DNA of 64,000 bases from NCBI GenBank assembly GCA_016788665.1, contig JAEUSF010000002.1, forward strand, positions 73,387-137,386. The letters are read 5' to 3'. Shown here piece by piece: positions 7,501 to 46,098 of the stretch (its first letter is position 1; each line of letters begins with the position of its first letter). This stretch comes from Candidatus Doudnabacteria bacterium. Its GTDB lineage: Bacteria > Patescibacteriota > Doudnabacteria > UBA920. The position numbers and the translations under genes are program-made. Under the pieces are notes generated by a model. That model had not been told where the DNA came from. It did not search any database and saw nothing but the letters and a program-made list of their open reading frames with translations.

Positions 7501-7529
7501 TTGACAAGACCCCTTAAAATAGGTATAAT
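7501..7529 (+). promoter_or_regulatory. Perfect sigma70 consensus promoter TTGACA-17-TATAAT, followed by AGGAGG RBS at 7549-7554
   Basis: TTGACA at 7501-7506, a 17-nt spacer and TATAAT at 7524-7529. AGGAGG lies 8 nt before the ATG at 7563. Confidence 0.6.
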
Positions 7530-21466: not shown

Positions 21467-21622
21467 ACTACTATATTAAGACAACGCGGCCAATTGCTAA
21501 ATAAAATACAGAATTGATTTTGCGTTTTAACTTCTTTCTTAGCTTGGTAGCCAACAATTGACAAATGCCTAACTATTTTGTACAATAATCCAGTCATTTT
21601 ATATTGTTGATTTTAAAAAAAT

Positions 21623-30022: not shown

Positions 30023-30342
30023 CCAAGCCTCCTTAAGTTGTAGCCCATAACACGAACTTCCAACTCGACCATACCACGCTTGCTGACCCGAACGTCAACT
30101 TCGCCTAAGGGAATATTCAAGCGGTTACTGGACGAACCACTCAGGGTCAGCGCCCCGCTCCTCAAGTCCTGTTGAAACGCATGGACCAAATCCATGCGCT
30201 CCTCCGCAGACAAGTCATCAACCTCACGCCTAGGTCGCGTCTTTTTCTTCCGTTGCACACAGCTCTTAGAGAGCACGACTTCCTGTTCGAAGCCAAAGAT
30301 CTGCATGATCCCTCCAAGGAACATGGTATAAAACAAAAACAT
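30019..30342 (-). CDS. GC-rich hypothetical basic protein (probable start 30306, MQIFGFEQE..., after GGAGGG RBS)
   Basis: About 95 aa. Own promoter TTGACA-17-TAAAAT (complement of 30341-30369). The preceding gene ends with an intrinsic terminator. Confidence 0.4.
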   Translation of the reverse strand: MFLFYTMFLGGIMQIFGFEQEVVLSKSCVQRKKKTRPRREVDDLSAEERMDLVHAFQQDLRSGALTLSGSSSNRLNIPLGEVDVRVSKRGMVELEVRVMGYNLRRLG

Positions 30343-30427
30343 TTTAATGAACTTTGTCTAAAATGTCAACACTAAATAAAAAAGCGGCAATTTTAACCGC
30401 TTAAGAAAATAAACTCTACTTAAAAAG

Positions 30428-40195: not shown

Positions 40196-41173
40196 TTAAT
40201 GACCTTCTTGTTCTGCCAAATATTTCTCTACATCTAGCGCCGCCATACAGCCCATACCTGCTGCGGAGATAGCCTGTCTATATCTAGGATCATTTACGTC
40301 ACCCGCGACGAACACCCCTTCTGTATTGGTATGCGTATGATTAAAAACTTTAACATAACCTTTTTCATCTGTTTCTATACCGGCTTCTTTAAAAATTTTG
40401 GTGGTCGGAGTATGCCCAATTGCCACAAAAAAACCTTGCGCTGACAAAACCTCTTCCTGTCCGCTTTGATTATGCTTTATTTTTACACCTTCTACTTTTT
40501 CTTCTCCTATAATATCGGTGATTGCGACATTGGTTACAAACTTTATTTTGGAGTTTGCCCTAGCACGCGCCAACATTATTTTACTTGCTTTAAAATCTTC
40601 TCTTCTATGAACTATAGTCACCGACTTACCAAACTTTGTTAAAAAATTTGCCTCTTCCATTGCGCTATCGCCACCACCAGCTACCACAATGTCCTTGTCT
40701 TTAAAGAAAAAACCGTCACAAGTTGCACAAGCACTTACGCCCTTTCCCCGAAGTCGCTGTTCGTTAGGAAGACCAAGCCAATTAGCCGTAGCACCTGTTG
40801 CGATAATAACCGAATTTGCAAGAAATTCTTCTGAAGAAGTTTTTACAGCAAAAGGTTTCTTAGAAAAATCAACAGCAACAGCATTATCACGAACTAATTT
40901 TGTCCCAAATCTTTCAACCTGTTTTATCATGTTATCCATAAGCTCAGGACCCATAATACCATTTACAAATCCCGGAAAATTTTCCACTTCTGTAGTTTGC
41001 ATAAGCTGTCCGCCCGGCTCCAAACCAGCAATCACCAAAGGTTTCAAATCAGCTCTTGCGGCATATAAGGCTGCGGTAAGACCCGCCGGGCCAGAACCTA
41101 TGATTATAACGTTATGAGTAATCTTGTCTAACATAAATGTTTTGAGTGATGAGCGATAGGTTACCGGTAACAA
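40196..41173 (-). CDS. trxB: Thioredoxin-disulfide reductase
   Basis: FAD GxGxxG motif, redox-active CATCDG, NADPH-binding GGGDSAMEEA and a C-terminal FAD motif. Confidence 0.9.
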   Translation of the reverse strand: MLPVTYRSSLKTFMLDKITHNVIIIGSGPAGLTAALYAARADLKPLVIAGLEPGGQLMQTTEVENFPGFVNGIMGPELMDNMIKQVERFGTKLVRDNAVAVDFSKKPFAVKTSSEEFLANSVIIATGATANWLGLPNEQRLRGKGVSACATCDGFFFKDKDIVVAGGGDSAMEEANFLTKFGKSVTIVHRREDFKASKIMLARARANSKIKFVTNVAITDIIGEEKVEGVKIKHNQSGQEEVLSAQGFFVAIGHTPTTKIFKEAGIETDEKGYVKVFNHTHTNTEGVFVAGDVNDPRYRQAISAAGMGCMAALDVEKYLAEQEGH

Positions 41174-41258
41174 ATACTAAAAATACTTAATTCCATTAAC
41201 CCCTTAATGCTCACCAGTTACTATTATTGTCTATTTATTTTAAAGCAAAAAAACCTTC

Positions 41259-41287
41259 TTGACAAACCTAAAGACGAAGTTTATAAT
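41259..41287 (+). promoter_or_regulatory. Perfect sigma70 consensus promoter TTGACA-17-TATAAT
   Basis: TTGACA at 41259-41264, a 17-nt spacer and TATAAT at 41282-41287. Followed by an 83-nt structured 5' UTR and an AAGGA RBS. Confidence 0.55.
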
Positions 41288-41376
41288 CACAGGTCCCCTG
41301 CTTGTTTGTGGGGGAAACAGAACATTAACAAACGCCTCACACTCTGAGGCAATAAGGAGGGCGGAAAGGAAATCCT

Positions 41377-41646
41377 ATGTCCTTTTTGTTCCTGATGGTC
41401 GTGTTTGCCATGGCCTCTCTTGCACATGCCGCCGGCGCCACTATGCGCCTGAGCAGTTTCTTGAGAAAGCAAAGCCTAAAAAAACAAACACTCCCAAAAG
41501 CAGTTACGGCCCTTATGGCCGCCGCGCAGCTTTCAGAGCTAGCAAGCCTTATAGAACACGCTTCGTTCGTGCATTTTGTTGGAGCAGCGATGGTTCTGGT
41601 AGTCTTGTTAGCTGTTAAGTCAGGAACCGAAGAACATGGGTTGTAG
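41377..41646 (+). CDS. GC-rich small (89 aa) Ala/Leu-rich protein with a signal peptide and a C-terminal hydrophobic anchor
   Basis: N-terminal MSFLFLMVVFAMASLAHAAGA and C-terminal FVGAAMVLVVLLAVKSGTEEHGL. Flanked by the consensus promoter and the 41711-41752 terminator. Confidence 0.4.
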   Translation: MSFLFLMVVFAMASLAHAAGATMRLSSFLRKQSLKKQTLPKAVTALMAAAQLSELASLIEHASFVHFVGAAMVLVVLLAVKSGTEEHGL

Positions 41647-41710
41647 GCAAAACCGCCTCCCCAAAAACCCAAGGGTTTCCTGATACCATGTCACGCGAGT
41701 GACAGAATCT

Positions 41711-41752
41711 AAAATCCCCGAGAGCTTACGCTTTTCGGGGATTTTCTATTTT
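41711..41752 (+). terminator. Intrinsic terminator
   Basis: AAAATCCCCGA / TCGGGGATTTT 11-bp stem followed by a T-rich tract. Confidence 0.6.
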
Positions 41753-41808
41753 CTAAAGGATAAAGCCTGCCCGGATGACCTGTTCGGACAGAGATAAAGC
41801 CTGAACCT

Positions 41809-42882
41809 CTACTTATATTCTCCCAGTATGAGAGGTAGATCCATTTTTTCTCCGTTGCGAAGAATGGTTACCAAAATTTGGTTTCCAGCCTCATAGCGCA
41901 ACACTTCTGTATCTAACTGATTCACCTGATTAATTTCCTTTTTATTTAAATGAGTAACAATATCGTTAACTTTTATACCTGCCAAAGCGGAAGGACTCCC
42001 CACCTCAACCTTTAAAACCACAGCCCCCTTATCTGTAGGCAAATTATTTTCAGTTTGAATAGTTTTAGTCAAACCCACAAAACTCAAACCCAAATATGGG
42101 CGACTTACTTTGCCCAAAGTTTTAAGCTGTTCAACTGATGTCTTTATCGTATTTACAGGGACTGCAAACCCTATACCTTGAGCAGTTGCATCAATTAAAG
42201 TATTCATACCTACAACTTCCCCTGCCATGTTAACCAAAGGCCCGCCGCTATTACCAGGGTTTATAGAAGCATCTGTTTGAATTAAATTTTGCAAACGAGG
42301 TTTAGGATTGCTTTCAGTGCCGACATTTACCGCCCTGGAAAGCCCAGACACAACTCCGCGCGTAACAGTATTCTGGTACTTGCCCAAAGTATTCCCTATT
42401 GCAAAAACAGTTTGACCAGTTTCCAATCCACTCGAATCCGCCAAGGCCGCAGGCACGAGACCAGTCGTCTCTATTTTTATAAGTCCAATGTCGTTATATT
42501 TGTCGGTTCCCACTACCCGAGCATCATAAGTTTTGCCGTCTGCAAACATAACTGTATATTTGCCTTCCGGTTCATTTATAACATGCTGGTTAGTAACTAT
42601 ATAGCCATCTGCTGACAAAATAAACCCCGTGCCAGAAACTTCTGTTGACTCAAATTTTATAGTAGGAGTATTTTCAACTTTGTTAACCCCCAAAATATTC
42701 ACCACGCTAGACTTTGCCTTCCGTACAGCCAAAATAGCCTGCTGCTCATCTGTCGTCGGCTTTGAAGACGTTGGCTTGATAGGGTTTAACTTAACATTTT
42801 GACCAACAACCTGGGTCGAAAAAGCCAAAAAACCCCCAATTGCCACAGGTGCCAAAAATTTCGCAATTCTATTGCTTTTCAT
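41809..42882 (-). CDS. htrA: HtrA/DegP-family periplasmic serine protease with PDZ domain
   Basis: Signal/TM anchor at the N-terminus. Catalytic triad context TNQHV, D..L.K and GNSGGPLVN. PDZ domain at the C-terminus. Confidence 0.9.
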   Translation of the reverse strand: MKSNRIAKFLAPVAIGGFLAFSTQVVGQNVKLNPIKPTSSKPTTDEQQAILAVRKAKSSVVNILGVNKVENTPTIKFESTEVSGTGFILSADGYIVTNQHVINEPEGKYTVMFADGKTYDARVVGTDKYNDIGLIKIETTGLVPAALADSSGLETGQTVFAIGNTLGKYQNTVTRGVVSGLSRAVNVGTESNPKPRLQNLIQTDASINPGNSGGPLVNMAGEVVGMNTLIDATAQGIGFAVPVNTIKTSVEQLKTLGKVSRPYLGLSFVGLTKTIQTENNLPTDKGAVVLKVEVGSPSALAGIKVNDIVTHLNKKEINQVNQLDTEVLRYEAGNQILVTILRNGEKMDLPLILGEYK

Positions 42883-43087
42883 AATATTTATTTATTTATT
42901 TATACAAACCATATTATAGCAAATAATATTGTTTTCATTCATACATTTGGCATTTTAAAATATTATTCTCATTTTGATAAGGAATTTATTTTCTACCAAC
43001 GGCTTTTTAACCTTTGGGTCAGAAAGAGCTATTAGACTATCTTTATTGATTAAGATAATTAAGTAAAAAAGTCAGGAGGTGAAAAAT

Positions 43088-43183
43088 ATGGCAAAAAATT
43101 CTAAACAAGGTAGAGGCTGGCACGGCGACTCAGAAGGACATGCACGCGCCGGCAGCCAATCCCATAAAAACGACAGACGCTAA
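43088..43183 (+). CDS. Very small basic hydrophilic protein (31 aa), possibly stress-related
   Basis: AGGAGGTGAAAAAT-ATG translation signal and no competing long ORF. MAKNSKQGRGWHGDSEGHARAGSQSHKNDRR. Confidence 0.4.
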   Translation: MAKNSKQGRGWHGDSEGHARAGSQSHKNDRR

Positions 43184-43247
43184 ATGGAATAAAATCCCAT
43201 CGTCTTAAAGTATAAATTAACAAAAACTTTGCTAGGAGGTGAAAAAT

Positions 43248-43373
43248 ATGTCCCACAACCACAACAATTCCAAAAGCAGAAACACTTCCTCGAACCAAGA
43301 CTCCTGGGAACGAACATCGAAGCAAAACGAACAAGCTTCGCGCAGTAACAGAGAAGCCAACAAAACTGAATAA
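43248..43373 (+). CDS. Very small hydrophilic protein (41 aa), a paralog-like tandem partner of 43088..43183
   Basis: Identical AGGAGGTGAAAAATATG initiation region. Followed by a terminator hairpin (ATCAGCAG...CTGCTGAT) at about 43388-43425. Confidence 0.4.
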   Translation: MSHNHNNSKSRNTSSNQDSWERTSKQNEQASRSNREANKTE

Positions 43374-43614: not shown

Positions 43615-43812
43615 ATGAACGGTGTTGTAAAAAAGAAAATGGACAAAGGCTTCGGCTTTATAACCATTGAAGGACAAAATCAAGATTTGTTCTTTCACAG
43701 CAACTCTTTGGTTGATATAACCTTCGAAGAGCTAAACGTAGGCGATGCAGTTTCCTTTGAAATAGAAGATTCCCCAAAAGGAAAAAATGCAGTCAGCGTA
43801 AGAAAAGTTTAA
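43615..43812 (+). CDS. cspA: Cold-shock protein, CspA family
   Basis: KGFGFI RNP1-like motif, 65 aa. The long AT-rich 5' UTR is typical of csp genes. Confidence 0.9.
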   Translation: MNGVVKKKMDKGFGFITIEGQNQDLFFHSNSLVDITFEELNVGDAVSFEIEDSPKGKNAVSVRKV

Positions 43813-45695: not shown

Positions 45696-46098
45696 ATTAC
45701 TACGCAGCTTGGTTTTCCGCAGGGGCGGCAACTGGCGCTGTCTGGGTTTCCGGAGCCGGGCTAACTGGTTCCGTAGTGGTAGCATCTGTCTTTTGTTCGT
45801 CTGACATAACTGTATTCCTTTCGTATCCCGCTTCGGCAGACCCGAAGTTAACAGGACTACCTTATCTGAGCGAGACCATATTAGGGTAAATTGGCCCAGT
45901 AAGATATTTAGCCAGTGACTCATTATAACACTAACCAGCAAGAATAGATAGCTAGGAAACTACTGAAAACTGTCCTCCCCATTTACAAAAAATTTTCTCA
46001 TAAAAGTTCATTAATAGTTTTTGTAACTAGGATATTATATTGACACAATTAGTTAGGTACCTTACTATTATATATAAATCTAATTCATACGAACTCGT

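Follow-up and report, generated by a model that had tools for sequence, protein, structure and literature searches.

Why does a small bacterial gene for a membrane protein carry the marks of a structured RNA? The question is raised by a stretch of 64,000 nucleotides (nt) from a Candidatus Doudnabacteria bacterium (assembly GCA_016788665.1, contig JAEUSF010000002.1, positions 73,387 to 137,386 of the forward strand), here called the window, in whose coordinates all positions are given. Between trxB and htrA it holds a short transcription unit with an open reading frame (ORF) of 89 codons, which we compared with the units in 17 related loci, 18 units or loci in all. A preliminary description of the window had read the region as a complete, stand-alone expression unit for a small hydrophobic protein, and all of its parts are indeed present. 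The comparison adds that the start region of the messenger RNA (mRNA) is complementary to its 3′ end and that, as far as sequences can tell, this complementarity is kept by compensatory evolution and by frozen synonymous sites. We consider it likely that a selected long-range pairing exists.

The pairing involves three short, mutually complementary elements, among them X, formed by the K-S-G-T-E codons (AUCAGGAACAG), and Y in the 3′ untranslated region (3′ UTR; GUUCCUGAU). Two predicted folds have to be distinguished, a closed fold in which the start region pairs with the 3′ end and a local fold with an X:Y hairpin. The segments concerned, including two Shine-Dalgarno (SD) sequences named SD1 and SD2, are the following.

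41356–41361, plus strand: SD1, GGAGGG, 15 nt 5′ of the ATG (−21 to −16); GGAGG(G) is present in 18/18 units.
41364–41376, plus strand: SD2 (GAAAGGAA) with the spacer AUCCU, the working ribosome-binding site and 5′ strand of the SD2:Y helix; the sequence GAAAGGA is conserved.
41377–41646, plus strand: coding sequence of 89 amino acids (aa), at NCBI the hypothetical protein JNN11_01650 of a Candidatus Doudnabacteria metagenome-assembled genome (MAG).
41388–41396, plus strand: early-ORF segment that pairs and covaries with X; CTG/TTG in 17/18, TTC in 14/15 Phe codons.
41619–41637, plus strand: X (GUCAGGAACC, codons K81-S-G-T84) with GAAG and ACAU, which pair with codons 1–4 including the AUG.
41653–41662, plus strand: CCGCCUCCCC in the 3′ UTR, complementary to SD1 plus CGG and a possible alternative anti-SD (RNAduplex, window only).
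41672–41684, plus strand: Y (AGGGUUUCCUGAU) in the 3′ UTR, which pairs with SD2 and the spacer in the closed fold or with X in the local fold (motif and cognate tests).

A motif resembling GUUCCUGA occurs in the 3′ UTR of 16–17 of the 18 loci, and the sequence flanking Y upstream shows complementarity to its own locus's SD2, spacer and AUG, often also to codon 2, and changes together with them. In the window, AGGAAAUCCU pairs with AGGGUUUCCU over 10 base pairs (bp). The closest relative, an 85%-identical syntenic homologue (L081), pairs AGGAAAUCUU with AAGGUUUCCU and differs from the window by a compensatory C-G to U-A change between spacer and Y. The corresponding pairing joins AGGAACUCC with GGAGUUCCU in L003 and AGGAGC-CUUAUGAA with UUCAUAAG-AGUUCCU in L005. 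L086 lacks a Y element in its 3′ UTR; there the spacer and AUG, GGUUUCUAUG, find their partner in the last codons, CAUAGAAACC.

In an alignment-free permutation test, 5′ and 3′ segments were paired within a locus and between loci, and the predicted duplex energies were compared. The start region (−22 to +30) reaches −38.6 kcal/mol with its own 3′ end (−50 to +70) against −33.0 kcal/mol for non-cognate partners (p = 5e-5). For the segment from SD2 through codon 2 (−16 to +6) against the tail of the ORF and the 3′ UTR, the values are −17.05 and −12.66 kcal/mol (p = 2e-5), and X tested against the 3′ UTR gave p = 0.003. Control segments of the same transcripts were not significant, with p = 0.79 and 0.29 in the start-region test and 0.09 and 0.87 in the SD2 test, which argues against an artefact of GC content. 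The codons tell the same from the coding side. Synonymous sites vary freely in the middle of the coding sequence even at conserved residues (P44 is CCC in 10, CCA in 5, CCG in 2 and CCT in 1 of the loci; E58 is GAG in 12 and GAA in 6) and are frozen at X, where GGA and GAA each stand in 17/18 and serine is TCA or TCG only, as well as at Z, the start codon with codons 1–7.

Structure prediction shows where the two folds place the start site. For the window transcript (41293–41753) the closed fold has a predicted energy of −165.2 kcal/mol and the local fold −165.4 kcal/mol. In the closed fold SD2 and the spacer are paired with Y, and Z is paired with the last codons (X), so that about 29 bp over −10 to +22 shut the transcript from 5′ to 3′ while SD1 stays free. 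The local fold contains the X:Y hairpin, with the start region paired to the upstream SD-like element. When full transcripts were folded without constraints by partition function, the mean pairing probability of −14 to +21 with the 3′ region was at least 0.5 in 11 of the 18 loci. Without the 3′ UTR, bases −12 to +3 are predicted to be unpaired with a mean probability of 0.52, up from 0.36 in its presence (Wilcoxon p = 0.003).

The 5′ UTRs, 64–139 nt long after the −10 box, follow one common plan across the loci: a hairpin at a conserved GUC near the predicted transcription start, an A-rich stretch, GGAGG(G), GAAAGGA, the spacer and the AUG. In the window the parts upstream of SD1, together with a further hairpin behind Y, are:

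41294–41315, plus strand: hairpin P1 (UCCCCUGC-UUGUUU-GUGGGGGA) at or adjoining the predicted transcription start (minimum free energy (MFE) fold).
41316–41333, plus strand: A-rich linker with CAUUAAC, predicted single-stranded and unpaired in the closed fold.
41334–41350, plus strand: hairpin 2 (GCCUCA-CACUC-UGAGGC), optional in the family (MFE fold).
41690–41703, plus strand: small 3′ UTR hairpin GUCAC-GCGA-GUGAC (MFE fold); L081 keeps the stem with another loop.

P1 is intact in both folds. A stem at its place is predicted in most loci, and its strands covary (cognate versus non-cognate strand test, p = 4e-4); the AUUAAC motif of the linker recurs in many of the related 5′ UTRs. Hairpin 2 differs from that of L081 by two compensatory changes (ACCCC/GGGGU) and is absent or replaced in more distant loci. 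Downstream of these elements, GAAAGGA and a spacer of 4–7 nt to the AUG are conserved across the loci. SD1 is too distant to position the start codon: GGAGG(G) lies 15–50 nt upstream of the AUG across the loci, and in several of them hairpins are inserted between SD1 and SD2. It is predicted to be unpaired in the closed and paired in the local fold, and we regard it as a candidate ribosome standby or mRNA-stabilising site.

What could such a pairing be for? We favour, with some reserve, the reading that the mRNA hides its own ribosome-binding site by pairing with its own 3′ end, and that translational gating is the purpose. It is possible, though rather unlikely in our estimate, that the unit is an ordinary housekeeping membrane protein gene, in which the 5′ hairpin, SD1 and the 5′–3′ pairing merely compact a highly expressed mRNA and stabilise it against RNases. 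A single copy in fixed synteny under strong purifying selection, a consensus promoter of constitutive type in 18/18 units and the lack of an antisense partner would suit such a gene, and 5′-terminal hairpins and elements of the stabilising SD (STAB-SD) type are known to stabilise mRNA. However, the paired segments are exactly the SD, the spacer, the AUG and the first codons, which covary with their partners; stabilisation alone needs no occlusion of the start site, and removal of Y raises predicted accessibility.

Several observations weigh against gating. The ensemble pairing probability of the closed fold is only 0.27 in the window, where removal of Y barely alters the predicted accessibility (0.46 to 0.49), and three loci (L006, L004 and L087) show little long-range pairing in their ensembles. 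The register of the SD/AUG:Y helix differs between loci, so that it could be tested in an alignment-free manner only. A local hairpin of SD and Z, considered as a conserved metastable structure, was rejected with a cognate test of p = 0.24. The long-range pairing could serve mRNA stability instead of gating, and a single fixed locus with a product above the size of typical type I toxins would suit a housekeeping gene no less than a toxin-like one. No antisense sigma-70-like promoter scoring at least 10/12 was found within any of the 18 units, and no complementarity to the unit longer than 13 nt, as a partner acting in trans would offer, elsewhere in the 64-kb window.

If gating is nevertheless the purpose, the unit might work as follows. 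Transcription on its own from a consensus sigma-70 promoter would yield an abundant transcript, whose closed 5′–3′ form would be poorly translatable and probably stable. Initiation would need a transient or induced opening of the 5′–3′ helix, by a 30S subunit standing by at the free GGAGGG, by trimming of the 3′ end or by a switch to the X:Y fold. Ribosomes passing through X would then prevent the start region from closing again. Gating, the standby role of SD1, the stability of the mRNA and any membrane-damaging activity of the protein are what we infer from the arrangement of these elements.

The closest parallels are found among toxin–antitoxin (TA) systems of type I. In aapA/IsoA of Helicobacter pylori, the SD is sequestered by a 3′-proximal anti-SD in a 5′–3′ long-distance interaction (Arnion 2017; Masachis 2019, PMC6733600), nearer anti-SD hairpins act during transcription, and one synonymous codon is frozen by structure (PMC6733600). 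The unit resembles aapA in the predicted sequestration of an SD by a 5′–3′ interaction near the 3′ end, in UCCU-type anti-SDs near the SD with one of them in the early ORF, and in being a stand-alone structured mRNA with a terminator, a small membrane product and a structure-frozen synonymous codon. It differs in that AapA has about 30 aa and one helix, whereas the unit protein has about 88 aa and two or three helices; aapA is overlapped by the antisense RNA IsoA, while none was detected for the unit; and aapA loci are multicopy, while the unit stands at a single, syntenic locus. Activation by 3′ trimming has been shown for aapA and is only a proposed route for the unit.

T1TAdb uses 5′–3′ SD sequestration and anti-SD features as descriptors, with hok as the classic case (PMC8594479). 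In hok/Sok of plasmid R1 and chromosomal loci, 5′–3′ pairing (tac/fbi) closes a full-length mRNA that is stable and translationally inert, and, as in our unit, alternative pairings form among three or more mutually complementary boxes of a transcript of about 400 nt. However, hok has an overlapping leader ORF (mok) and the antisense RNA Sok, neither of which was found in the unit, and its fbi element pairs with the extreme 5′ end and not with the SD and AUG themselves. For tisB, two papers (PMC6690012, PMC7708055) describe a standby site with a 5′ structure and a single-stranded region. A far-upstream SD-like or single-stranded element combined with 5′ structure links the tisB standby site and the cryIIIA STAB-SD to the GGAGGG, A-rich linker and P1 of the unit; the distance to the AUG is 15–50 nt in the unit family compared with about 100 nt in tisB and about 125 nt in cryIIIA. 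The rpoH thermosensor and the MS2 and Qbeta mRNAs likewise have a start region paired with distant sequence in or beyond the coding sequence, and their translation depends on the opening of a long-range helix, but genes and partners are others, and control by temperature or translational coupling is unsupported for the unit.

Do these parallels make the gene the toxin of a true type I TA system, with an RNA antitoxin encoded elsewhere or transcribed from a non-consensus promoter? We think this unlikely. The SD-sequestering 5′–3′ interaction, the early-ORF and 3′-proximal anti-SDs, the structured 5′ end and the strong terminator are all type I descriptors, the product is a small, hydrophobic membrane protein, and one relative (P0030) carries a fused ParD-like antitoxin domain. 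Yet with 86–91 aa and two or three helices, the family members exceed the usual size of fewer than 60 aa and the usual single helix, their locus is single-copy and strictly syntenic and neither mobile nor multicopy, and neither Pfam nor PADLOC gave a toxin-family match. Because of size and helix number, the lack of an antisense promoter and of complementary sequence in the window, and single-copy synteny, membership in this class is not established: the unit may work like a type I toxin mRNA, yet we do not class it as one. The relative P0030 (98 aa, on a 644-nt contig of the European Nucleotide Archive, ENA) has its N-terminal helix replaced by a ParD-like ribbon-helix-helix domain (PF03693, E = 2.6e-6), joined to helices 2 and 3 of the family; it may be a real recombinant or an artefact of assembly or gene calling.

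That the unit is coding at all had been in doubt at first sight. Its GC-richness had given the preliminary description the impression of a structured non-coding RNA (ncRNA), which was then dropped in favour of coding. The coding assignment holds, and the impression of a structured RNA turns out to have been partly right too, given the conserved, covarying long-range pairings. Over the ungapped 270-nt ORF alignment, the window and L081 differ at 54 sites, distributed 11/5/38 over codon positions 1/2/3 (chi-square p = 3.5e-8), with dN/dS 0.09 and dS about 1 (non-synonymous and synonymous substitution rates). Because of this codon-position pattern and the low dN/dS, we regard the ORF as protein-coding under strong purifying selection, and the coding nature of the unit as almost certain.

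A structured ncRNA with a fortuitous ORF would agree with the GC-rich region within an AT-rich context and with a fold z-score of −5.2 on the plus strand. It is, however, extremely improbable in view of the dN/dS of 0.09 and the excess of third-position changes, of the frame, start codon, SD and length kept over about 47 clusters at 30–45% identity, and of the lack of any Rfam or transfer-messenger RNA (tmRNA) match. The Rfam search, which the preliminary description had suggested, gave no match spanning the region: nothing in the unit reached the gathering threshold, and at E ≤ 10 there was terminator-like noise only. ARAGORN found no tmRNA in the region, and a search for Rfam-type ncRNAs in the 17 related loci returned tRNAs only. 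Known ncRNAs (tmRNA, RNase P, 6S, riboswitch) are thus ruled out by Rfam, ARAGORN and the coding signature. The GC content at third codon positions (GC3) is 0.52 in the ORF versus 0.31 and 0.35 in the neighbouring genes (long ORFs of the window: 0.38 ± 0.07), and this raised GC3 fits selection for RNA structure along the gene. Horizontal acquisition as the source of the GC-richness was judged unlikely given the conserved synteny.

The transcription unit around the ORF is delimited by the following features.

40196–41173, minus strand: trxB, gene of a thioredoxin-reductase-type flavoprotein (Pfam).
41237–41265, minus strand: divergent promoter toward trxB, −35 TTGTCA 41265–41260 and −10 TAAAAT 41242–41237 (10/12).
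41259–41287, plus strand: sigma-70 consensus promoter, −35 TTGACA 41259–41264, 17-nt spacer, −10 TATAAT 41282–41287 (12/12).
41711–41753, plus strand: intrinsic terminator, 14-bp stem 41711–41745 followed by a T-run (terminator scan).
41809–42882, minus strand: htrA, gene of an HtrA-type protease with a PDZ domain (Pfam).

These features agree closely with what had been described for the unit: a TTGACA-17-TATAAT promoter, matching the consensus at 12 of 12 positions; a 5′ UTR of about 83 nt with two hairpins, both in the MFE fold; an AAGGA ribosome-binding site, which is part of AAAGGAA at 41365–41371, 5 nt ahead of the ATG at 41377; and an 89-aa ORF (41377–41646) followed by a strong terminator with a 14-bp stem (41711–41745). 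The unit was also rightly described as a GC-rich island in the AT-rich gap between trxB and htrA, flanks which Pfam confirms; its GC content is 0.49–0.53 versus 0.31 immediately upstream. With a transcription start near 41294, the predicted 5′ UTR has about 83 nt and the transcript about 460 nt. The remark that the unit looked synthetic was an impression only, as all 18 loci examined share the layout, which is a natural and conserved one, and because the whole arrangement recurs in 17 related loci, it is beyond chance. Terminators are present in 18/18 units. That of the window is symmetric, flanked by an A-run and a T-run, and lies 64 nt past the stop codon of the convergent htrA; its sequence is bidirectional, and it probably ends both the unit and the htrA transcripts. 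Read-through from htrA would run antisense to the 3′ UTR of the unit.

In 18/18 units TTGACA is perfect, the spacer measures exactly 17 nt and the −10 box reads TAnAnT. Back-to-back promoters with one common −35 region, TTGACAA in plus-strand and TTGTCAA in minus-strand reading, are found in 14 of the 18 and suggest that trxB and the small gene compete or are co-regulated. The pattern TTGACA-N17-TAnnnT occurs five times in the window, compared with 0.54 occurrences expected by chance. One site, at 21558–21586 (−10 TACAAT), precedes a 71-aa ORF, about 40–250 nt downstream, that looks like SecG in having two helices, the first of them N-terminal, and a Gly-rich loop (FGGSGN) between them. The others are at 7501–7529 (plus), ahead of a GGAGG-led ORF with a signal-peptide-like N-terminus (MRKLVLCLFLTVAANAA...), at 30341–30369 (minus) and at 46040–46068 (plus), ahead of a MarR-like ORF.

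How widely is the gene distributed? A protein search gave the identical NCBI entry and one 85%-identical homologue of 89 aa, that of L081, which stands in the same arrangement of trxB, unit and htrA. When 1.8 billion cluster representatives were scanned in full with HMMER, 47 proteins came out at E ≤ 1e-3, nearly all of 85–94 aa, and a word-indexed profile search found 40 members, all unnamed or "hypothetical". With blastn against 80 trxB loci the unit recovered L081 only; tblastn on the loci fetched by trxB was needed for more distant copies (35–47% identity), which lie beside trxB in six syntenic loci. Nine more loci were fetched via family members and one (L082) via a metagenome scan with a four-sequence alignment. 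A metagenome scan with a two-sequence alignment gave no match, and exact look-up of the window peptide and of the window HtrA in an index of encoding contigs gave no record.

The gene is present in a single copy and keeps its syntenic position: in 17/17 other loci the plus-strand unit has trxB on its 5′ side, and in most loci whose flank was examined it has htrA on its 3′ side. More distant trxB loci, including one in another Doudnabacteria MAG (L010), are without the gene by tblastn, and the family is therefore restricted to a subclade. Going by these alignments and neighbourhoods, the gene is genuine and vertically inherited in a subclade of Candidatus Doudnabacteria (Candidate Phyla Radiation (CPR)/Patescibacteria).

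The neighbourhood varies in a few loci. A divergent gene for a CsoR/RcnR-type metal-sensing repressor (PF02583) stands between trxB and the unit on the minus strand in L084 (1873–2157) and L090 (1990–2268), which hints at a link to metal or redox stress. The 5′ inverted repeat was considered as a CsoR-type DNA operator and judged an unlikely one, as the stem sequences covary rather than remain constant. In L086 (2791–3833) the unit and htrA are separated by two further genes, one CopG-like of 53 aa and the other an ORF of 271 aa. Farther along the window, at 43079–43373 and 43615–43812, lie two tandem small ORFs, both starting with MKNM, rich in K, N, S and H and with strong AT skew, directly followed by a 65-aa ORF resembling a cold-shock protein.

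What kind of protein does the gene encode? Pfam gave no match for the window protein and only scattered weak ones over 41 members. NCBIfam, PHROGs and PADLOC gave no family match, a profile search of PDB sequences nothing below E = 0.19, and Foldseek against PDB no match. The AlphaFold2 (AF2) model has three helices with a predicted local distance difference test (pLDDT) score of 81. In the family, Glu54 is invariant, Gln51, Ala79 and Gly83 are nearly so, and Lys/Arg57, Glu60, His61, Lys/Arg81 and Glu85 are strongly conserved. The predicted layout comprises an anchor helix with its N-terminus outside, a strongly basic cytoplasmic loop and a helix-turn-helix hairpin ending in K-S-G-T-E. This hairpin bears the invariant Glu, which is probably membrane-embedded, and the conserved Gln, Lys/Arg, Glu and His.

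The preliminary description had called the peptide "membrane or secreted", with a signal peptide. The membrane part stands, whereas secretion with a cleavable signal peptide does not. Residues 1–18 of the window protein are hydrophobic and end in A-H-A, and positions 16 and 18 are often small residues family-wide, as a Sec signal peptide with a cleavage site would have them. But the n-region is without positive charge, A-H-A occurs only in the window and L081 and no A-x-A site is conserved, and family-wide a loop of net charge about +4.9 directly follows the hydrophobic stretch. It is therefore very unlikely that the product is a peptide, secreted or anchored, whose Sec signal peptide is cleaved off. 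Since the n-region is uncharged, A-H-A is not conserved and the loop should by the positive-inside rule remain cytoplasmic, residues 3–19 are probably an uncleaved membrane anchor with its N-terminus outside.

Other identities found no match by profile, sequence or fold (SecG, SecE, YajC, ATP synthase c, Hok, holins and defence effectors); SecG is ruled out, because the ORF resembling it is another one, just downstream of the promoter at 21558–21586. Class I holins resemble the protein in their length of about 90 aa, predicted outside N-terminus, up to three helices and short charged C-terminal tail. In contrast to holins, the protein has no PHROGs or Pfam match and no phage lysis cassette around it, and its gene is a conserved chromosomal one between trxB and htrA.

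In conclusion, the locus brings to light an unannotated, clade-specific protein family with an invariant Glu, and a conserved pair of back-to-back promoters, that of the unit and that of trxB, with a single −35 region. To our knowledge, almost no gene regulation has been studied experimentally in the Candidate Phyla Radiation. The system is compact, with a transcript of about 460 nt and a clear mutational design (compensatory pairs of Y with SD2 and of Z with X), and tests of it in vitro or in E. coli would require no culture of the organism. So far, 5′–3′ pairing that sequesters a start site has been known mainly in Proteobacteria and Epsilonproteobacteria, where it occurs in short type I toxin mRNAs. 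If the pairing model is true, its range would also take in the Candidate Phyla Radiation and a membrane protein gene that is larger and vertically inherited.

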